DNA of 64,000 nt from NCBI GenBank assembly GCA_964016885.1, contig OZ024746.1, forward strand, positions 65,844,001 to 65,908,000, read 5' to 3'. The notes below the pieces were generated by a model. That model ran no database searches, had not been told where the DNA came from, and saw only the letters and a program-made list of their open reading frames with translations. This document shows positions 1,358-60,110 of the stretch, one piece after another. Position numbers and translations under genes: made by a program. Position 1 is the stretch's first letter. The number at the start of each line of letters is the position of its first letter. Source of the stretch: Eledone cirrhosa. Lineage: Eukaryota.

Positions 1358-1601
1358 TATATATATATATATATATATATATAAGCAAAGGGATATCTAA
1401 TTTGTTGGTAATTCAACAAATATATATATTTATAACAGATTGGAAGGTTTTCTGGAATATAATATCAATGATATTAATAATAATAATAAATGGAGACTAT
1501 ATTTATTCTATTATATATATTTCAAGGGTATATCCAGGTGAAACTTGAACTGTTAAGGTCTCACTCCTGGATAAACCAAACTTTGTATAAACCAAACTTT
1601 G

Positions 1602-1661
1602 TATTTTATCTGATGAGAGCGAACCACGTGTTCGTACCCTTGAAATATATATAATAGAATA
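1602..1661 (+). ncRNA. Minimal type I hammerhead ribozyme (family A)
   Basis: Stem I tattttat/atagaata, core CTGATGA, partly decayed stem II, GAAA, palindromic tatatata stem III, AUA cleavage triplet. Confidence 0.7.
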
Positions 1662-1683
1662 AATATAGTCTCCATTTATTAAT

Positions 1684-1867
1684 TGTTTCTACTTTAGGCA
1701 CAAGGCCAGCAAATACCCAGTGCATTACTGGTACTTTATTTTATCGACCCCGTAAGGATGAAAGGCAAAGTCAACCTCGGCGGGATTTGAACTCAGATCG
1801 TAAAGGGACGTAACTATGTTGGAAAGCATGGCGTCCGACTCTCTACCGATACTGCCAATCCACCGCC
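1684..1867 (-). mobile_element. tRNA-derived SINE, full length, 19-bp TSD
   Basis: A box TGGCAGTATCGG, B box GAGTTCAAATCC, central gcctttcatccttacggggtcgataaaataaagtacc. TSD atagtctccatttattaat at 1665-1683 and 1868-1886. Confidence 0.92.
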
Positions 1868-1886
1868 ATAGTCTCCATTTATTAAT

Positions 1887-15169: not shown

Positions 15170-18100
15170 CTAGGGCCGGTAAAATTCGCGAGATCCATGA
15201 ACGAGTTCTCTCCAGCGATCTCTGTCCCTCATTATCGCTGTCTCCAACAGACCAGTGTCTGTCCTTAGGGCATCAACATACGTTAACCTTGGTCATCCTC
15301 TTCCAGTGTGACCATAAAGGGGCTCCCACAGGAACACTGAGTGCAATGTCAACTCTGCATGTCGGTGAGATGTCTAGCTAACCTCAGTCTCCTCTGTGTC
15401 ACTTCTGAGCTGACTTTTGAGAGGCTCCCATACAGCTCTGAGTTTTTAATCCTCAGTGTATACTGATTAATGTTCAGAGCCATCCTCAGCATTCTCGTGT
15501 ATCCGCTATCTGAGTGAGTTTCTTGGTCAGTGTCCAAGTCTCAGACCCGTACAGCAGCACAGACTCCACTACAGCAATGAAGAGGGGGATTTTCAGGTCT
15601 TTAGGAAGGTCCGACTTCCAAACCGATCTCAAGCTGTGGCACGCCGCCAAGCTTTGCTCTTCCTCTTAACCACATCATCTTCCGTATTCCCAATCTTTGC
15701 TCCCAAATACAGGAAGTCCTCAACCAATTCTAGCAGCTTCCTGCGTACATTAGTGATCCTCTCTGGCTTCTCAACATTCTCTACCAAATATTTTGTTTTA
15801 GTCTCATTCATTCACAGCCCCACACTCATCGACACAGTCTCAACCTCCTGCATCGAATCCTCTGCCTCCTTCACTGTATTTGTCACCAAAATTATGTCGT
15901 CGGCAAATTCAGCATCCGATATCTGTTTCGCCTTAACTCTCCTGCTCTGAGCCGGTGCTACAGTAAAGCCAGAGTCCTGGTGTTTCTCCAGTGCAAGGCG
16001 CATACAATAGTCCACTACGATGATAAAAAGGTAGGGAGCCAATGCATCTCCCTGGAGCACTCCAGCCAGTATCTCAAAGAACTCTGTCATCCCATCAGGT
16101 GGAATGACTTGGGCTTTGGTGTTGGTGTAGAGCAGTGATATAAGGTCCACTATCTTCTTGGGGATTCTATAAGCCTGTAAGATCTTCATCTGGCAGTGAC
16201 ATTCCACAGAATCAAAGGCCTTCCTAAAGTCAATGAAATCCATGACCGCAGGAAGGCACTTTGCTCTAGCTCCCTATAATATCCTCCTGAGCATCAGGAT
16301 GTGACTGGTGGTTCATCTTCCCTCTATGAAGCCGTTTTGGTTGTCCCTGAGCTTCTTCTCCATCTCGGGCTGGATCCTGTTAAGAATCATCCTGTTGAGG
16401 GTCTTTGCTATAAGTGACGTCAGTGAAATCCCCCTGTAGTTGTTGGTGTTAGAGAGATCACCCTTCTTTGGCACTGGGACAATGTTAGTGATCCTTCACT
16501 GATTCGGGCAACTCCTTTCTCCAGTGCCTGGGCCCAGGATGATATCATCAAAATCACACCTCTTCATCACCTCTGGTGCCACTCCATATTCTCCATGAGA
16601 CCTGCCCTCCTTCATGTTGTTATTGGCTCTCTGAAGCTCCTCTCTGGTGAAGGGCTTGTCTCAATATCCATTTCTTCAAACACCCGCCTGATCTCCACAG
16701 TGCTCTGGGCTGTGGAGGGCGGCTCTCCTAGTAGGGTTCTAAAATGGTCTAGCCATTTCCTCTTCCCCTCCTCGAGCCCTGTTCCCTGGATCTGACCTGA
16801 ACACCTTCTCTACCTCCCTGTGATCTCGTTGATGATCATCCAGCTCTCCTTACATCCAGACCTCTCTCAACCGCTCTCTCCACACTTCTGATCTTCTCTA
16901 TCAGTGCCTCCTCTCTGACCTCAGTGTAAGCGGTACAGAGTTCTTCCCTCATCACAACCACAGTCTCCACCATCTCCTCCGTAGGATCAGCATAGAATTG
17001 GCCCTTGGCAGCTTTCATGTGTTTTATGGTTGCACACACTTTTGGGTTTGCAGAGCTGACGTGCTTCCTTTTGTTCTTTCTCCTCGGCACCAGGGTCTCA
17101 CTTGCTTCCGCCACTGCATTGGTGAAGTTCCCGGACCTCCTCGTCACACTCTCCTCAGTCCATCCAATCTCTCTCTCCTCTGTCTCTCCACACTGAGCAC
17201 TGAACCTGTTCCTCACTTCCACTGTGAACCTCTCCTGTAGCTTATCATCTTCCTTGAAAGCTCCCCAGTAATAGATTGCTCTCCGGGGCTGAGCCTTGCT
17301 CTTCTTTAAGCTGACCCGGACCTCACTCATAACAAGCCGGTGGTCACCACCCAGTGTACTGAAATAGTTGTATGGTTCTGTGTTCAGAACACTATTCCGC
17401 CAGTTCTTCCTCACCAGAATGAAATGAATCTGGGACTTGGACAGGCACATATCTAAGATGTAGGTCCACATCTTCCCCGGATTCTTCCTAAACCTTAGGT
17501 TGGTCGCTATCAAGTTCGCCTCCAGCAGAGTGTCTCTCAGTAGTCTTCCATTTCGGTTGGTGTTGTTATGGAAGTACCAGCTAGGATTTTCACTGCCCCC
17601 CTTACTCAGATGTGCATTGGAGTGCCCCCAAACAAGCAGGATGTTGTGTGCTTGTGTGGTGTTGACAGCTCTACACACCTCCTCATGGAACTCTTCCGCA
17701 CTCACATCACTGTCTCCCTCGGCTTGATTATAGGCTGAGATGACTGTCAGCCTTGGGTTTCTATTGAAGGTCACCCTCAATACTCATGGGGAGACAGGTA
17801 TTACTTCTCTTTGTCAATAGACTCGTTTTTGTGCTGAAAACAAAACCCACTCCTTCCACTGCAGCATTGGTCATGTTCCTCACTGACGATGTGATGATGA
17901 GCTAGCTCATCTTCCCAAGCATCACACTTCTCGCGGGCTCATCCTGTAGGATCCTGTGCACTTGGAGCTCAATGATCTGTATACCACTCTCCTCGAACAG
18001 ATGTCCCAACTCCTCTCTCTTCTCCAGCGTCCGAATAGTCCTCACATTCAAAGTGCCCATTTTGATGGCTCTTCTGCAGGACAAAACTGCATTCTTTATA

Positions 18101-22041: not shown

Positions 22042-22650
<609 letters not shown>

Positions 22651-31230: not shown

Positions 31231-31271
<41 letters not shown>

Positions 31272-32900
31272 TCAACGCCTGCCACCCCAACGCCGTAGCC
31301 TTTTTCTCAAGGTACGTGGACGATATCCTCATCCTCACATCTTCCCAAGACACGGCGAACAGAATCTATGAGACGTTCAACAACACGGACGAGAACATTG
31401 ACTTCAGTGTTGAACACCCCAACGAAGACGGGTCACTTGCCCTCCTCGACTTCCGAATCAACATCACGGAACAGGGAAGGATCCACTGCAACTTCTGCCG
31501 AAAGGCAGCCTGCAGAGACCTATTCGTTCACTACAAGTCCGCCCTCCCTAACAGTGCCAAAAGGGGATACATCACGAACGGGATCGCGCGAATCAAAAAC
31601 AGATGCAGCGATCCCGCGAGTGGTGTCACTCATACCAAGCGATTCCTCGAGGTGCTGGAGACGAACGGGTACCCTACCTCGATCACAGACAGATTAGGAG
31701 ACACCAGACGCAAGAGACAGAGAAGCACCCAAGGCAAGTGCTTCCATAAAATGCCACACCTGGGCGAGAAAACCATCAACGCTATCCGCAAGGCTATACG
31801 GAGGGAGGGCCTCGACATCTACCTGGCCCACTCGGGCCCCTCCCTGCGAAAATGCCTCTCCAGGAAACTTGAAAAATCTACTGACACATGCTCCCTCAGA
31901 GATTGCCCGATACGCCATGCGAACTGTTGCCTGCGCACATACGTCGTGTATAAGATAGAATGTGACAGGTGCAACCAATACTACATAGGTAGCACAATTC
32001 GACCTTTGCACATCCGGATCAAGGAACACACTAAAACCAGGCCCTCGTCTTACCGGAAACACATAGACAAATGCGGAAACAAAGACGGAAGGCCCATTGT
32101 CACAATTCTAGCGACTGAAAGAAACGTCGGCACGTTACGTATCAAGGAAGCGCTTTTTATCAAACGACTGCAACCGCAAATAAACAACCGATCAGAGAGA
32201 AGCGAAATGAGATGGCTGGTTTAAGTTAACAAGCGATGCAACAACACACAACACACGCACACACACACACATGCATACACGCATACATACACACACGCAA
32301 ACGAGACAACTACACACACACACACGCACACACAGTAGCATTCCACCATACAAACATACTACACTGCCAATACAGAGGAACAAGGCAACAACACACGCAC
32401 ACACACACACACACACTCAAGCGAGACAACAACACACGCACACACACACACAGTAACATTTAACAAACAGGCAGAGAATGGACTGACAGCTAGCGCCATC
32501 CCACTCCCTCATTCGGCCGCTGACCTCTGTACGACCGACCCCATTTCACGCGCACGCGCGCTCTGCCGAATACCTCAGATATTCAAAACAACAAACAGCA
32601 AACGACGCGTTCCGCACTTGTTCGACAGACAACCTTTTCCCCCACCCCGGAAAAACCCCAGTTGATGGATGTGAATCCGAAATATATAGGGACTATTAAA
32701 TCTCTCCCAAGGTAACTCTCTCTTGTGTTGTTATTTTAATTTTATCCTTTATACTCTTCCCTTCATTCTACACATCTCACACATCTTATACACACCACGC
32801 TTCTCAACGTACACCCACTTACATCTCTCTCTCCACCACCGGACCTTGTTACCTGGAGATTTACCCATTTGCATTGTCGAGGCTTCCAAACGACTTAAAG
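31272..32900 (+). mobile_element. 5'-truncated Penelope-like element (RT C-terminus + GIY-YIG)
   Basis: RYVDDIL, LALLD, VVYKIECDRCNQYYIGSTIRPLHIRIKEH and IKEALFIKRLQPQIN in an uninterrupted ORF to 32224. TA flanks. Confidence 0.93.
32656..32691 (+). ncRNA. HHR-like motif in the PLE 3' region (variant core)
   Basis: ccc-CAGTTGA-t-ggat gtga atcc-GAAA-tata-TA-ggg, then ATTAAA. Confidence 0.55.
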
Positions 32901-43028: not shown

Positions 43029-43075
<47 letters not shown>

Positions 43076-43078
<3 letters not shown>

Positions 43079-43472
43079 GATATTAATAAATAGAAACTAT
43101 ATTTATAAAACCATATTTATTTCATTATATATATTTCAAGGATACCAAGTTACATTATGGTATGCCTTCATCAGACAAAATACAATATATAACAGTTTTA
43201 TAAATAGACATTGACGTAACCCTTTTAAAAATTGACCGTTGTTTTTGGAGGCCATCAGGATATAAAACTGTTATATATTGTATTTTGTCTGATGAAGGCA
43301 TACCATAATGTAACTTGGTATCCTTGAAATATATATAATGAAATAAATATGGTTTTATAAATATAGTTTCCATTTATTAATATCGTATATCTACTCCAAA
43401 TATTTGTCGAGTGCTTTATTTCAGTTATAAAAATATTTGCTTGTTGTATCCCAACAATTTAAATAAATCTTT

Positions 43473-43476
<4 letters not shown>
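43076..43476. mobile_element. Family A foldback, copy A3, two intact opposed HHRs
   Basis: Arms 43076-43203 and 43262-43388 are almost identical. HHRs at 43118-43182 (-) and 43281-43345 (+): tattttgt-CTGATGA-aggcatacca...tggtatcctt-GAAA-tatatata-atgaaata. Confidence 0.9.
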
Positions 43477-43562
<86 letters not shown>

Positions 43563-47159: not shown

Positions 47160-49500
47160 TGAAAACTGGAACGGAAACAAAAAGAGAGAGGCAGTCCAAA
47201 CAAAGGTTTATTAGTTTCACGCTCTTGAGAGGGGGGGGGGGTTCAGGCATAAGCCCTTCTTCAAGAGAAAGCGGGTGGGAAGAGAGTTCTGAGGGTGTGT
47301 GTGGAGTGCTGGAGAGGCATTTAGAAAAAGGGGGGGAACGGTGGAAGTTGTACAAATAAAAATAAAAATAAACATAAAGATAAACAAATGGTGGAAGGGT
47401 GTGGGGCGTGTAGGGGTGGTGGTGGGTGGAGTAGGGAGAGGGAGGCGGGGGGTCCGAGCGGGGAGGGCTGAAGATTGTGTAGGTGTACGTGTGTGTGTGT
47501 GTGTGTGTGAATGTGAGAGTTGGGGCAGAACAAGGTTCCATGTTCAGGAAGCGGTGTGAGTGTGGGGCGGGGTGTAGGTCGGTGTTTGCGTGCGTGTGTA
47601 TGGGGAGGGGTCAGAGGGATGGGGGGATTCGGGAGGGTGAGTGTGTACATGTGGGGGTACGCATGTATGTGTTGGTGTTTATATGTGGTGTGGATGTAGG
47701 TGGCGTGGTTCGAAAAAAATTGTGAGTGTATGTCCGTGGGTAAGTTCCTAAGGTAGTTTCGTGGAGTGTGCGATAAGGTGCCGGATATTTTTCATGTTAT
47801 GGAGTGGATCGCTGAAACGATGACCGGTGGTGTGTAATCCGTTGGTTGTGCTGGTCAGAGGGTCAAGGCAGGATGAAGGCATAGCAGTAGAGGAGAATGA
47901 CAGGTGGAGAAAGTCAATTTCTGGTGAGGACTGTGTGTCTGTGTGTGCGGAGGTGCGGTGGACAGGGGAGAGGATGGGTAGGTGTGAAAGGTGGAGTGTG
48001 AAGGGGGTCATGCGGGGTGGGGGGGTGTTATAGAGGTGTTAGTGGGATATGTGTGTGTGTGTATGTGAAGGGGTGTGGGTGGAGCGTTGAGAGGGAGAGA
48101 AAAGGTGTGGCGGATGGTGGAGGCAGTGTAGTGTACTGGTGTGTGTGTGAATGTTTGAATGAGTGTGTGTGTGGTAAAGGGGGTGTTAGTGGGTGTTAGT
48201 ATACTGGTGGTGGGGAAAGGGTTGAATGCGGGTGTGTTAGTGGGGGTTAGTGGTGGTTGGGTGTGTAGAGTGGGTGGTGTATCTAGATGTGGGTCTGTGT
48301 GTGTGGGAAAGTATGTGTTCGTGTGCGTGGAATCGGGGGGATGTTAGTTGCATTAGTTGTTGGGTGGTTGGAGGGGATGTGTGGGTGAGGGTTAGTGGTG
48401 GTAGTAGGGTGTGTGGATAGTGTGAATGCGTGTATATATGTACAGGTGGGTGTGTGCGTTTTAGGGGGAGGGGTGGGGATGTTAGTATTGTTAGTCGGGG
48501 AGGGTGGCCGGTATGGGGTGGGGGTGTTAGTATTGTTAGTTGTGGGGTGGGCGGTGAAAAGGCTAAAGGAATAGGGGAGGGGAGTTCAGGCCGGGGGGAG
48601 TGTGGGTATGTAGGGTGAAGATGGTGCGTTGTTCGACTGTGAGGCGGGTGGCAGGTGTTCCGTGGCATTGGAGTAGGCCACAGACTGTGAGGTGGTGGGC
48701 GGAATGTCCAGGGAAGCCAAAGTGGCGGGCGTTGGGGTAACTCCCGCCGAGACGAATGTCACGGACGTGTTCAGTGAAAAGTCCCCCAGGCGACGTCCAG
48801 TCTGTTCGACGTGGGTTGCACTGCTCTCCGTGCAGCGAACTCCATAGACTTGGTTGGAGCAGGTGCAGCGGAAGGCGTGCCGGACAGAGAGAGAGTGGCC
48901 GTTGGGACGCTGGAAGGTGGTGTTGTTGTTGATGTGGGGCAAGTGTGGCAACGAGGCCTGAAGCAAAGTGGGTTGGCGGTAGGGAGCTGCGGACGAGGAG
49001 TGTGCGGAGATTGCGTGCGCTTTTGAAGGTGGGGAGGGGTGGGGATGGAAAGATGTGGGAGGTGGAGGGGTCGGACTGGAGTCGTCGGAAGAGGCGGAGG
49101 ATGGTGCGGTGGAGGGGTAGAGTGGAGTGGTGGTAGGTGATGGGGAAGGGGAGACGGTGGGTGAGTGTGCGGTGGCGTGGGGTGAGCGTGGTGGAGCGGT
49201 GGTCTGCACGGGCGCGAGTGAGGGCGGTGTGGACTTTGGGTGGGGGCATAACCTCTGCGGATGAAATGACTGACTAGGGAAAGGGCCTGGGTCTCAAAGT
49301 CAGCATCTCGGCTGCAGAGGCGGCGGATCCGGTGGAATTGGGAGTAGGGAATAGAGTGTTTTGTGTGTGTTGGGTGGGGGTAGGTGAAGTCGAGGTACGA
49401 GTGGGAGACGGTGGGTTTGAAGGAGGCGGAGGTGACGAGGGAGCGGTGGGAGGGGTCGATGGCGACGGAGATGTCTAAGAAGTGGACGTGGGTGTTGGAG
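47160..49500 (-). mobile_element. Penelope-like element, 5'-truncated and frameshifted
   Basis: LPFPITYH...FKSARNLRTLLVRS linker and degenerate GIY-YIG (CTCSNQVYGVRC...QTGRRL...EHVRDI). Long CA-rich 3' UTR. Degenerate HHR TTGAAGA-agggcttatgcct-GAA at 47222-47268, followed by AATAAA. Confidence 0.85.
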
Positions 49501-51218
49501 ATATAGGTAATATATGTTCAATTTTGAAACGTGAAACGGAAAATGTAATTGGCTTCAGTGAGTGGAAATTTGAAATGAACGAACTATAATTATGGTCAGT
49601 CACTATAAAGAACAGTTGAAGCTACGTTAAGTATACATGGAGACGGAGAAATGTGAAGGATCTTGGATATGAGGAATACAATGTGAGGCAAAAAAGTATC
49701 TAAGGCACCTCAACATCGACATTCCTTAGTTTTGTTGAAAAGAACTCGTCACAATAGACTCATAGTGATTGTCTATTTAAACATTGTGAACAAAACAAAA
49801 GACACGGGACAGGAGGATTTGATGGTTAGATAAGGGCAAAATATAGAAAGTATTTAAGGTCCAAATAGCGGAACGATCCAATATATATACATATTTTTAT
49901 TTAAAATGTTTATTATCACTCTAATAAACATACGTTTCTTTTTTTCGTGCAAATAATGAAATATCTCCGAAATTAATCTAAGTCATTTATTGTTTTAAAC
50001 ATTTCACGCCTATTCGTCTATATTTCTCAATGTCTTTATTGATTATCTCATTACATCTACAGAAAATATGGTGAATCTCACTCTCTAATAAAACGAAGCT
50101 TGTCTTCAGTTTTTGCACGTACTTACCAAAATTGTAAGAATATTAAATTTTCGGCTAATGTCTTTTTCTCACTGCATTTTTTTCTCTAATGAGTTTTTTC
50201 TAGGCTCACTGCATTAATTATGTTAATAATTAGCTAATGCGCTTTAATGTGAATGGCGTCTGTGGCTAATATCTCTAAGTGATTTATTTTTAAAGAATAA
50301 TGGATCTGGTTGTGTTGCTGTGATAATCACTGTCCGGGGAAATTTAAGCAGCATACACAAGATAATACAGATTAATTAGATGGAAACTGCATTCATTTCA
50401 TCGTTAAATTTGTATATTCTCTCTATCCGCTATAAATACAATTGTATTGAGAAATGGCTAGGGTTATGAGTTTAATAAACAAAATGGACGATATATATTA
50501 TATTAATGTCTCATAAAAGTATAATTAAACACATATGGAAAAATATATAGTCGTTCTTCAAATGAACGGAAAAGCATTTACTATGAGGTATCAGAATAAG
50601 TCACTCCGGAAGATGAGGAAATAATACAAAAAATAAGAACGCAGTAGCAAAGCACTATAGTGAGAATAATATATATAACAATAAATAAATGATTATATTA
50701 GACATTAAATATATTTCCAGCACAACTTCATGTGTTTTAACATACAATTATGTTAGATTGTTTTTCATTGTTCTGGCCGTTAGTGGCAACCTGATGACTT
50801 TATAGCTGTTAAAATGTTTATATCCAACTGGTTTATGGCTGTTGAAAAATGCATAAAGATGAGAAGTTAATATAAGTATATTCATTACAGATTTAGAGAA
50901 TTGTTAAAGTAAAAATGTAATTTAAAAATAATGTATCTTCAACAGCCATAAATTGCTATATATAATGTACGTATGTACATTATATATAGAAATATATATA
51001 GAATACGTACGGATACACACATACACCAAACACACGCGCACACACGCATCATACACATATACACACACACTCATACAAACACACAAACACACTCACAAAT
51101 ATATAAGTATGAAAGAAAGATGTTAGTGTGAACATTTTACATTCAATTCTATTCATTCACTTAATGAAATACATTTAGCCGCTTGTTATTGAATGTATGT
51201 ATATATATACGTATGTGC

Positions 51219-51483: not shown

Positions 51484-51487
<4 letters not shown>

Positions 51488-51751
51488 AAAGTTCCATTTA
51501 AAATTGTTGGGATACAACAAGTAAATATTTTTTATAACTGATATAAAGCACTCGACAAATATTTGGAGTAGATATACGATCCAAAATTAATGGTTGCAAT
51601 TTAAAAGGGTACGTCAAAGCTTATTTGTAAAACTGTTATATATTGTATTTTGTCTGATGAAGGCATACCATATTTTAATTTGGTATCCCTGAAATATGTA
51701 TAATGAAATAGATATGGTTTTATAAATATAGTTTCCATTTATTAATATCGT
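51484..51751. mobile_element. Family A copy A4 with intact HHR at 51646-51710 (+)
   Basis: Inverted 3' tail at 51484-51580, then tattttgt-CTGATGA-aggcatacca...tggtatccct-GAAA-tatgtata-atgaaata. Confidence 0.85.
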
Positions 51752-55668: not shown

Positions 55669-55700
<32 letters not shown>

Positions 55701-55868
55701 AATGAAGTAATTCCGTCGGAAAAGGTCCAGGAAAAAAGAGTGCTCTATGTAGGTTACAGAGCTTAATAGTTATGTAATAAACAACCTAAGGCAATTATTT
55801 CATTTACCAGTGGTTTCTTAAAAGCAAACAAAGTTTGTTTTCAATCATCAGAATGAAAAAATCCTGGT
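55701..55868 (-). mobile_element. Family G element with intact HHR at 55798-55858
   Basis: tttcatt-CTGATGA-ttgaaaacaaac..gtttgcttttaa-GAAA-ccactgg-TA-aatgaaa. Confidence 0.82.
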
Positions 55869-56169
55869 GTATTTATTGACATTGGATTTTAAAAACAAAA
55901 ATATAATCTATATGAAAGTGTAGGTGGAAAAGGAAGAAGGAAAGGAAAAATAAACACACACACACACATACATACATACACACAATTACATACACACACA
56001 TATATACATACACATATATATACACACACATACACACACACACATATATGTATATATATATATCTACATACACATACATATACACATACATACATACACA
56101 CATGTATATCAACATATCCATACATACACATACACACACATACAAAACACGCACACACACACACACACA

Positions 56170-56227
<58 letters not shown>

Positions 56228-56309
56228 CATACATACAAACAATCATACATATATACACACGTACATACACACATATACACACGCATACATACGCATGCAC
56301 AAATATAGA

Positions 56310-56583
56310 TATATGTACACACACCGACATACCCACACACACAAATAATTATAAGAAAAAGTGTAATAATAAAAATACCGTCACATAAGAATAACAATGA
56401 ATTTAAAAAATATTATAAAGTTGACAGCGATACAGGCAACAAATAATGAACAAACACACGTGGTAAGCAATACACACAATTACACATACACATACATACG
56501 TAAAAATAAATACATACACACACACACACACATACACATACATATACATATACACACATACACATATACATACACACATACAC

Positions 56584-56626
<43 letters not shown>

Positions 56627-57036
56627 TATATTCATACATATACAGAAACACATACAAATACATACACACACATATGTATGTTGGTAAAACTCATTCTTAG
56701 ATGTATTCATATGAACCTTGTTTAACTCTTAAATATATATATACATATATATATACATATATATATATACACATACACACACATATATATACACATACAC
56801 ATACATACATACACACACACATATATATATAAGAAAATACATAAATAATATATATATATAAAAATTAAAAGATGGGATACGACAAATAATAAATAAATAA
56901 ATATTTATTTGTTGCCTGTATCGCTGTCAACTTTATAATAATTTTTATATTCATTTTTATTCTTATGTGACGGTATTTTTATTATTATACTTTTTCTTAT
57001 AATTATTTGTGTGTGTGCGTATGTAGGTGTGTGTAT
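56310..57036. repeat. Inverted repeat pair around a microsatellite spacer
   Basis: ~56310-56447 and ~56905-57036 are reverse complements. Confidence 0.8.
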
Positions 57037-57049
57037 AAAGAAAAGGGTA

Positions 57050-57155
57050 TAAATGTATATAGCTGAATTAGAGCACTCAACAAATTCCTGTAGCAAATGA
57101 TCAATGAAAATAAGCATTAAATCACTGTATGTAATTAAACATATACATACACACA

Positions 57156-57230
<75 letters not shown>

Positions 57231-57500
57231 GCACACACACACACAACCATACAAATACACAACATATACATACATATAGGTATAAATATACACATATAGG
57301 AAAAAGTATGACCCACGGCAGTGCTCAAGCCGTTTCTGAGGCTATTATATATATACACACACAAATACAACAGAAGCATATAAAATACAATTATTTACAC
57401 ACATACATATACATACAGATGTATAAACATACATACACACATACATATACATACATACATACATACATACATACATACATACATACATACATACATACAT

Positions 57501-57556
<56 letters not shown>

Positions 57557-59092
57557 GCGCAACGCATACACACACACACACAGAAATAAATATCTAAAAA
57601 TAAAAAAGGTGGGTATGTGAAGGGAAATGTAGAAAGTAGGGGGGGGGGGGTGAGGAAAATAAATAACATAGGAAAAGGTTTAAATATAAGGGGAGATAAG
57701 GGAGAAAAGGATTATAAGAGTACAGAAAGTGAATTCAGAAGGTAAAAAAATCGTAGTGGATGTAAGAACTAGAGAGCAGAGAAGAGGTTCAGGGTGGTTG
57801 AGTTATCGTAGGAATGTCAATCCAGTTACAGATCAGATGTGATTTCAGGTGAGGACAACATCTGAAGATCTCGGTCTTGGAGTTCAGGCAAGCTGAAGTG
57901 GCTTTCAAATTTTGTAAAATCCTAAATTTTTCAGTGGTACACAAAGAACAAATCTTTGTGCCCCTTTGGTACTCCCTCGAATGGTCTAAAATAGACCAAT
58001 CGATAGAGTACGGGATGTTTTTATCCTTGAATTCCCACACCTTATTTGCGGGAGAGCCGTTGCTGTTCTTTTATCGGAGTGTTTAAAAGAAGCGCCATGT
58101 GCATAAAACCTGGTTTTAAACCTCTCCTGTGTCATTCCAACATATCGTTCACTCCTGGCTGGCTGGTTGTTAATTAAAGGTGTCACTTTGGCATCATACA
58201 CAACGGATTTGGTGTTATATTTGCCCTGTAATGGGCATTCATCCGGCTTCCTGCAACTGTATCCTGGATTTATTCTCGTACGATTAGAATTAGTGATTTT
58301 AGACTTCATAGACGGGCAGCAAGAGTAACTGATTTTAATTACATTTCTATTAAATATCTCATAATATCTATGATTAGGAGGAAAATGTTTATCTAAGAGG
58401 TCAAGGAATTTCCTTCCTACATTAGTTTTGACAGTTATTTTCCTTTTCCTATTATTGTGGTTAGTTTTTTTTTTTTTTGGGGGGGGGGTAGGTAAATAAT
58501 TAATTTGTTCTGTAAATCCGCTGTTATTAAGGGCTTTATTATAATAAGAGGCGGGGCGGCTTTATTAAAAATGTCTAGAGACGAAGATAAGGTAGAAATC
58601 CTACGGCTAACGTTGGGAATAAGATTTTAAAAAACTATAGGGGGATGGCAAGACTCTTTGTGTATATATCTAAGATTTTCGTTAGGTTTATGATAAGGTT
58701 TAAAAGAGGCAGTAAGTAGATCAAGATTAATGTCAAGAAAGTTAGCATTGGTAAGGTTCGAATCTATAGTAATTTTAAGGTTAAGATTAGCAAAAGTATT
58801 GATTAAATCTTTACGGAATTTATCAAGGTTATGGCCGTAGATGGTATGAGAAACTGCCAAACCGTCGTCACGGTATACACCGATATTATGGGAAGGACAT
58901 TTCTCTTTGAGGGTGTGGAGAAGGAATAATCCTACTAAGTCACACACATCCGTACTGTCATATGAACCCATTGCAACATCAAAAGAGTTTTCAGGGTTTG
59001 ACTTTTTAACCCAAATACTTTCATTGGTAATGCAATGGCAGAGTGTATATATAAAAAAAAAAAACGATGTAGTTTCATTTACATGTATTTAG
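57050..59092 (-). mobile_element. Penelope-like element, frameshifted (RT + GIY-YIG)
   Basis: MGSYDSTDVCDLVG, YRDDGL, FLDINLDL, VVYDAKV...YVGMTQERFKTR and CSLCTTEK motifs. The 3' region at 57297-57345 holds a family C HHR half. Confidence 0.88.
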
Positions 59093-59297
59093 ATTTTTAT
59101 TGTGTATCGACCTGTTCGTGCGTTTTGCCGAAAATTGGCTCAGAGTCACCCATACAAAGTATGGTCCCAGTGTAAGGTCATCGCATCAGTAGTGACAATT
59201 CAGAGTTGCCGTCAACGGGTACCAAGTAAAGAGAAACAAATAAGATGATGAATGAATGTAGTCATACAAATCGTGATAATACACATAATAATAATAA

Positions 59298-59458
59298 TAG
59301 TTGTTCTTAATTTAGGCACAAGGTCAGAAATTTTTGTAGGAAGGGAACATCGATTAAATCAACCATAGTGCGTTATTAGTGCTTTATTTACCGATCCATT
59401 GATCCCGTAAGAATAAAAGTCAAAGATAACCTCGGCGGAATTTGAACTCAGAATGTAA
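59298..59458 (-). mobile_element. Older tRNA-SINE copy
   Basis: B box and tail, with the longer-subfamily insert. Confidence 0.75.
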
Positions 59459-59472
59459 AATGATATATATAC

Positions 59473-60110
<638 letters not shown>

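Follow-up and report, generated by a model that had tools for sequence, protein, structure and literature searches.

A double-hammerhead hairpin in Eledone cirrhosa as a probable head-to-head insertion of a Hydra-clade Penelope-like element

Hydra-clade Penelope-like elements (PLEs), with Hydra-1_Obim and Penelope-13_HM among those described by Craig et al. (2021, PMC8557442), carry a C-terminal GIY-YIG domain, insert into (TA)n and have a hammerhead near their 3' end. In the parts of that work available, units of the clade are generally <3 kb, PLE tails measure 30-40 bp, the supplement gives Penelope-13_HM an inverted 5'-truncated copy with a hammerhead on each strand, and whether the PLE hammerhead cuts the template is named as open. 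The minimal hammerheads that metazoan PLEs carry (Cervera and de la Pena 2014, PMC4209133) combine a long stem II with a tiny palindromic stem III and come in many variant families per genome; their typical form, as given there, has a G10.1-C11.1 pair and an extra base after A9, and in Schistosoma opposite-strand pairs lie 100-700 bp apart. PLE hammerheads are described as weak monomers, dependent on a dimer or on protein (PMC4209133; PMC11167929). Inverted truncated copies with a one-sided tail, opposite-strand hammerhead pairs and a Hydra-clade example with both are already in print.

In the rotifer Adineta vaga, Penelope repeats have an inverted, shorter pseudo-LTR (pLTR), a one-sided tail, and a noted TATA and TCACT initiator, and the available account attributes the insertions to self-priming on an antisense template (Arkhipova et al. 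2013, PMC3846280). An internal pLTR promoter has been demonstrated in Drosophila Penelope, according to the part of the report available (PMC2377424). For PAc, an Anolis Poseidon PLE of another clade, the accessible text describes two internal start sites bracketing the tail, an AT-rich target with both strands cut and extended, and an uncleaved RNA template, hammerhead cleavage not being required (Frangieh et al. 2024, PMC11167929). Non-LTR retrozymes, as outlined in a preprint (bioRxiv 10.64898/2026.07.22.740005), are non-coding, hammerhead-bearing sequences from PLE ends that form tandem arrays spreading as units.

We analysed a 64,000-nt stretch of Eledone cirrhosa DNA (the window), part of a 3.0-Gb animal assembly rich in TA repeats. 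A sequence-only reading had counted four copies of a hammerhead-bearing family in it, and all four, here A1 to A4, were recovered. Where copies of this family run into (TA)n, they stop at one of two fixed sites. T1 lies 48 nt beyond the predicted hammerhead cut; T2 lies another 91 nt on, ~48 nt before an ATG. A3, at 43073-43476, is an inverted repeat with 130-bp arms and a 58-nt loop, its right side extending 91 nt beyond the left-arm end point. We consider it likely that A3 is a Hydra-clade PLE insertion in which two cDNAs, made on uncleaved RNA and primed from both (TA)n ends, were joined head-to-head. The features are as follows.

43038..43077, no strand: (TA)n target at the left flank of A3, read from the sequence
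43073..43262, minus strand: A3 T1 arm, from the initiator-like motif (start 2 nt inside) through the hammerhead to terminus T1
43118..43182, minus strand: A3 minimal type I hammerhead motif, core 43174-43168, predicted cut between 43126 and 43125
43203..43260, minus strand: A3 hairpin loop, leader sequence in the T1 arm only
43261..43262, no strand: A3 head-to-head junction, an overlap of 2 nt (TA)
43261..43476, plus strand: A3 T2 arm, with hammerhead, T1 site (43385), tail and fixed terminus T2 at 43476
43281..43345, plus strand: A3 minimal type I hammerhead motif, predicted cut after 43337
43386..43476, plus strand: A3 91-nt tail, 5' untranslated sequence
43477..43523, no strand: (TA)n target at the right flank of A3, read from the sequence
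1384..1886, no strand: copy A1 (approximate limits), short T2 arm on the minus strand and T1 arm on the plus strand with one hammerhead motif (1610)
22143..22598, no strand: copy A2, of another subfamily, T1 arm on the minus strand and T2 arm on the plus strand, core of the plus motif mutated
51484..51750, no strand: copy A4, tail-only T2 arm on the minus strand and T1 arm on the plus strand with one hammerhead motif (51654)

The A3 arms (43073-43202 and 43261-43390) differ at one of 130 positions, 43092, which agrees with the ~128 bp and roughly one difference claimed before. Each arm holds one hammerhead motif, and the minus- and plus-strand motifs are identical. Aligned to a natural copy of the element (L042), the T1 arm matches R4052-4243 at 97.4%, with 43078 as its final unambiguous base at T1, and the T2 arm matches R4111-4332 at 98.6%. 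In full copies, the tail sequence is followed by ~48 nt more to the ATG of the RT/endonuclease frame. A3 itself lacks a reading frame and is predicted inert. Among contigs of four sequencing runs compared with 43076-43476, none covers the whole stretch; one 62-nt contig crosses the A3 junction, with 29 letters on one side, short of the 31 required.

A later SINE-like insertion at 1684-1867, flanked by a 19-bp duplication (1665-1683, 1868-1886), breaks copy A1. Similar sequence also breaks family copies at three other loci (L031, L185, L293).

By sequence, the A3 arms are the terminal repeat (pLTR) of a PLE. Among the matches listed for the arm, 40 of 42 were 100% identical over 121 nt, and one T1 end has 2093 exact copies genome-wide. 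A 4.4-kb copy, L035, runs from pLTR through the reading frame and ~1.7 kb of AT-rich 3' region to a second pLTR, its frame interrupted by a stop and a frameshift. Two of the seven long-frame loci fetched, L193 and L194, have open 743-aa RT/GIY-YIG frames with all motifs (RWR, DKT, YRDD, CxCx5C, GIY/YIG, CxxC, CxH) and V-V-Y...Y-V-G near the C-terminus. At 97-99% identity the family is young, and some of its copies keep an open frame. We found 426 protein homologs at E<=1e-10, with 31-48% identity among the best matches listed; those of ~700 aa share the motifs of the element, the closest named matches are Argonauta hians proteins, and RWK or RWR occurs in all 14 aligned homologs.

The element protein gave no RT or GIY-YIG match and no meaningful family in Pfam, and its alignment gave 0 matches in a PDB sequence search. 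Because both searches were blank, the element was assigned to the Hydra clade by motifs and alignment, with references compared by eye; by this comparison it probably belongs there. The agreement with Hydra-1_Obim is motif by motif, and the protein motifs are those given for the clade (PMC8557442). A single frame holds RT together with a GIY-YIG domain at its C-terminus; RWR, DKT, the CxCx5C linker, CxxC and CxH are present; there is no CCHH cysteine pair inside GIY-YIG; insertion is into (TA)n and a hammerhead lies near the 3' end. Size departs from the clade description: with its long AT-rich 3' region the unit is ~4.2 kb, against a <3 kb figure that is descriptive, not strict. The 91-nt tail is likewise longer than that described for PLEs. 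Compared with the Hydra hammerheads of File S2 in the same paper (PMC8557442), the hammerhead here differs in its longer stem II, which contains a C.C mismatch, and in having a stem III of 2 bp. The layout of an endonuclease-bearing (EN+) PLE insertion unit, a pLTR with an adjacent inverted 5'-truncated copy and a tail at one end, was found in 35 of 36 pairs.

Three other classes were rejected. Naiad-clade elements have an N-terminal endonuclease and lack hammerheads. Non-LTR retrozymes share with A3 their non-coding, hammerhead-bearing nature and origin from PLE ends; no head-to-tail array of hammerhead monomers was found in the mapped loci, where dispersed inverted stubs have their own junctions. 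MITEs and fold-back DNA transposons have symmetric terminal inverted repeats and fixed internal sequence common to copies, whereas here the ends are unequal (T1 versus T2) and the centre varies between copies.

The A3 hammerhead consists of an 8-bp stem I, CUGAUGA, a long stem II, GAAA, a 2-bp stem III sitting in self-complementary AUAUAUAU, and AUA. CUGANGA, GAAA and NUH occur in order, and AUA reads as an NUH triplet with its predicted cut after 43337, as the sequence-only reading had it. Six hammerhead-like cores lie in the window (1610+, 22239-, 22408+, 43174-, 43289+, 51654+). The earlier count of six hammerheads therefore stands for motifs; one of the six is mutated (CTAATGA at 22408), so that CTGATGA is not fixed as had been stated. 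Both A3 motifs are intact. The Rfam hammerhead model gave 0 window matches at its gathering score, and the 7-mer CTGATGA was seen 12 times in the window against 8.6 expected, not above chance. The family as a whole greatly exceeds chance: genome-wide, the 48-nt A3 ribozyme stretch has 315 exact copies and a sister ribozyme type 7237 matches (reversed controls, 0 for each).

Pairing was counted in 94 aligned variants out of 95 distinct ones extracted, L065 being omitted for its much longer loop II. The hammerhead structure paired 95.7% of cells (slid registers, <=56%), and two-sided changes affected 144 cells against 41 in shuffles, a count below R-scape grade on related sequences picked by their core pattern. 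Compensatory change, claimed earlier for both stems, holds for stem II, where 6 of 9 pairs have two-sided changes; pair 5 shifts from G-C at 22 kb to A-U at 43 and 51.6 kb and reads GC 72, AU 15, GU 2 and unpaired 5 over the variants. It does not hold for stem I, where none of 8 pairs changes on both sides and 7 vary on one, by G-U wobble only. Stem III is invariant except for breaks, and the C.C mismatch at stem II position 4 is conserved. At 10.1-11.1, the variants have GU 50, AU 34, GC 7 and unpaired 3; A3 itself has A-U and no extra base after A9, and so lacks the typical PLE minimal form. The long stem II, tiny palindromic stem III and many variant families per genome are as in metazoan PLE hammerheads; the 8-bp stem I is unlike the minimal examples in the available account (PMC4209133). 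The alignment supports a hammerhead fold with covarying stem II, and it is in the parent lineages that the hammerhead is conserved. The monomer hammerhead fold lies 7-10 kcal/mol above the minimum of that sequence.

Mapping of the A3 subfamily covered 75 stretches, which gave 110 arms and 36 head-to-head junctions (short arms below 93% identity dropped). The ends paired at these junctions were T1/T2 in 35, T1/T1 in one and T2/T2 in none (P = 5e-10 versus a coin toss). Two samples drawn independently of the ribozyme, partly covering the same insertions, agree: the partner was T1 for 16 of 18 tail-anchored arms, the other 2 being truncated, and T2 for all 13 T1-anchored arms. Of 45 opposed ribozyme pairs in other subfamilies, 34 were clean T1/T2, 2 were T1/T1, one of these linking unrelated subfamilies, 9 were unclassified and none was T2/T2. 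All four window copies fit the T1/T2 pairing. True T1/T1 insertions outside this rule are L059 and L184, and many insertions show a single arm only in this mapping. Junctions vary from copy to copy, with an overlap of 0-5 nt in 27 of 36. In one sample partner arms differed by 14 nt in length, a difference we discounted since the short form had been selected by the query.

TATA microhomology was rejected as a general priming rule: the A3 subfamily has it at both T1 and T2, but in the 22-kb subfamily it is weak or lacking at T1. In the tails of all subfamilies, ACTC...GAGTGCT (window 43394-43415) is kept and may be a protein-binding or priming signal; a search of 19 tail sequences for conserved structure gave just a 4-bp ACUC/GAGU helix without covariation.

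We defined arms as non-nested where the T1 arm reaches >10 nt further upstream than the T2 arm and the tail is in the T2 arm alone. By this measure 23 of 35 pairs, A3 included, are non-nested; because each arm has sequence absent from the other, neither is a copy of its partner. This bears on the proposal that the inverted arm arises by fold-back self-priming on antisense RNA or on the first cDNA of the same element, which is how, in the portion available, palindromes at head-to-head junctions of rotifer Penelope were read (PMC3846280). Some junctions here are palindromic, L059 and L184 are T1/T1 fold-backs, and in the remaining 12 of 35 pairs the T1 arm falls within the T2-arm span, as self-priming would have it. 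The 23 non-nested pairs are impossible for a copy of the first strand, arms start in a pile-up at a sense-strand initiator-like motif (below), and two-site priming on a sense template is reported in vitro for another PLE (PMC11167929). We regard self-priming as an improbable origin for A3, and for the Adineta vaga attribution, too, the non-nested arms argue against an extension to this family.

Such near-identity of arms had been taken to mean a recent inversion. A rival built on this reading has a recent inversion, separate from insertion, produce a double-ribozyme hairpin acting as a regulatory switch or dsRNA source. One mismatch in 130 bp is what this would give, and burial of the ribozyme in the hairpin is predicted at 102 kcal/mol. 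Over 26 insertions, however, the arms differ by 1.69 positions per 113 nt within an insertion and 1.90 between insertions; the two values being alike, arm identity equals subfamily identity and mainly dates the spread of the subfamily. The layout is also seen in dozens of insertions, each time with new junctions, its ends differ in a fixed fashion, and ribozymes on opposite strands are unable to pair as a dimer in one RNA. The insertion is young, as the word "recent" implied; an origin by later inversion is contradicted, and we give that scenario hardly any credence.

RNA of either A3 strand is predicted to fold as one long hairpin (~-200 kcal/mol, z -23 to -26), in which the hammerhead fold lies 102 kcal/mol above the hairpin. 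Sequestration of the ribozyme by a dsRNA stem, suggested earlier, stands as a folding prediction for any transcript that might be made. Were host transcripts to run across short paired copies, long dsRNA could also arise from these.

Arm starts cluster at one position: 24 of 110 fall in R4050-4059, 10 nt from the A of TCACT, compared with 14 in the 150 nt upstream. This initiator-like motif is 138 nt upstream of the predicted cut, and the left arm of A3 starts within the pile-up. Samples chosen without the ribozyme had 10 of 60 starts in R4047-4059, and TCACT marks arm starts in two further subfamilies, in one of them with TATAAA at -31, an arrangement shared with the rotifer repeats. From these DNA ends we infer that the TCACT site is the RNA 5' end. 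As a check for a copied cap, G was found at ~7 of 21 exact starts after hand correction (automatic count, 7 of 20 non-C, P = 0.09), and a copied cap is not supported. Relative to the TCACT start, both arms were upstream in 9 pairs, both downstream in 16 and mixed in 10 (Fisher P = 0.03, marginal and post hoc). Among T1 run-off arms, 0 of 10 had a partner that reached upstream; among T2 run-off arms, 3 of 9 did.

Confined to the A3 subfamily, a DPE-like GGTCA at +28 to +32 may be chance. About 40 nt beyond the inferred start, the subfamilies retain a GGTA(C/T)GTCA-like motif (window 43207-43216, minus strand), a possible internal promoter element.

The predicted cut site behaves differently from the TCACT site. 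If the template were hammerhead-cut, possibly circular RNA, as put forward in the available part of PMC4209133, the ribozyme would set the insertion ends. The fold is conserved between subfamilies, arms of more than unit length occur (L042), and genome-wide estimates of junctions were ~49 at the predicted cut, 22 two bases upstream and ~25 two bases downstream (loci inspected: 30 of 112 matches, 25 of 25 and 30 of 44, respectively), an excess of two-fold at most, all of which a cut or circular template could explain. Yet the estimate at the cut falls to ~30, little above controls, once TA-run, later-insertion and duplicate cases are removed. Just 1 of 110 arm starts is at the cut (0.95 expected), both A3 arms cross the site, and a circle has no 5' end to yield the TCACT pile-up. 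We think this template less probable still than self-priming, and would give it little weight as more than a possible minority route.

The proposed two-cDNA route would run as follows. RNA would start at the TCACT initiator-like motif, and the GIY-YIG domain would cut both strands of a TA repeat. Priming by one DNA end would take place at T1 and by the other at T2, which lies 91 nt downstream; the two would often share a leader. Both cDNAs would then cross the hammerhead toward the RNA 5' end, stopping at or before it, and be joined via an overlap of 0-5 nt. Where both pass the hammerhead, two opposite-strand ribozymes and a hairpin would result, and where both are primed on the RNA leader, the product would be a 400-bp double-ribozyme hairpin such as A3. 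By analogy, this mechanism fits how the Anolis element behaves in vitro; that element likewise has two start sites around the tail, an AT-rich target cut and extended on both strands, and uncleaved template. PAc differs in clade and in having its sites inside the reading frame, those here lying in the 5' untranslated region 91 nt apart; its account, as available, reports no strand difference in start site and no one-end-each count (PMC11167929).

As a general rule, we lean only slightly towards the view that every insertion pairs a T1-primed cDNA with a T2-primed one, each from a different target strand, and that both are usually made on the same linear, sense, uncleaved leader RNA started at TCACT. 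If this is true, a single step would account for the inverted copy, the tail at one side only and the double-hammerhead hairpins; the rule would also count against antisense self-priming as the main route, and would leave the conserved hammerhead a job outside template preparation. The T1/T1 insertions and over-unit-length arms mean that other routes exist. Over-unit-length arms (L042, L193) need an extra step, by a tandem, circular or template-jump route. L042:2396-7372 and L193:701-5450 exceed one unit in length, and in both the leading repeat extends upstream of the inferred start; they are candidates for promoter-bearing source copies or for products of circular or tandem templates.

The one-end-each pairing count, the non-nesting argument and a tail this long were not found in the literature searched, which included few subscription papers. 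The A3 locus is mostly ordinary, and the family statistics are moderately interesting to PLE specialists. A young family with open-frame copies offers a clean test of inverted copies, one-sided tails and the role of the hammerhead in the template, and it gives exact predicted assay sites (RNA start, T1, T2 and the cut).

The window holds other elements. At 55700-59700, a second, unrelated PLE family has its own hammerhead (cores 55851- and 59616+) and the same layout, its left side being the tail-bearing arm and its right side the T1 end; at 57986-59088 there are broken fragments of RT and endonuclease, Hydra-1_Obim-like by eye. A long open frame at 24.6-26.56 kb (plus strand; RVT_1, E 1e-17; weak zf-RVT match) is a non-LTR retrotransposon fragment, and 15812-17783 (minus strand) is a broken LINE, one piece of which matches RVT_1 and another, weakly, AP endonuclease. 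Fragments at 31241-32224 (plus strand; GIY-YIG match, E 1e-4) and 48563-49517 (minus strand; no Pfam match) resemble other PLE clades. CTGATGA also occurs at 717 (minus strand) and 23526 (plus strand), each just upstream of a (TA)n run; the latter has a distant CGAAA and could be a further hammerhead.
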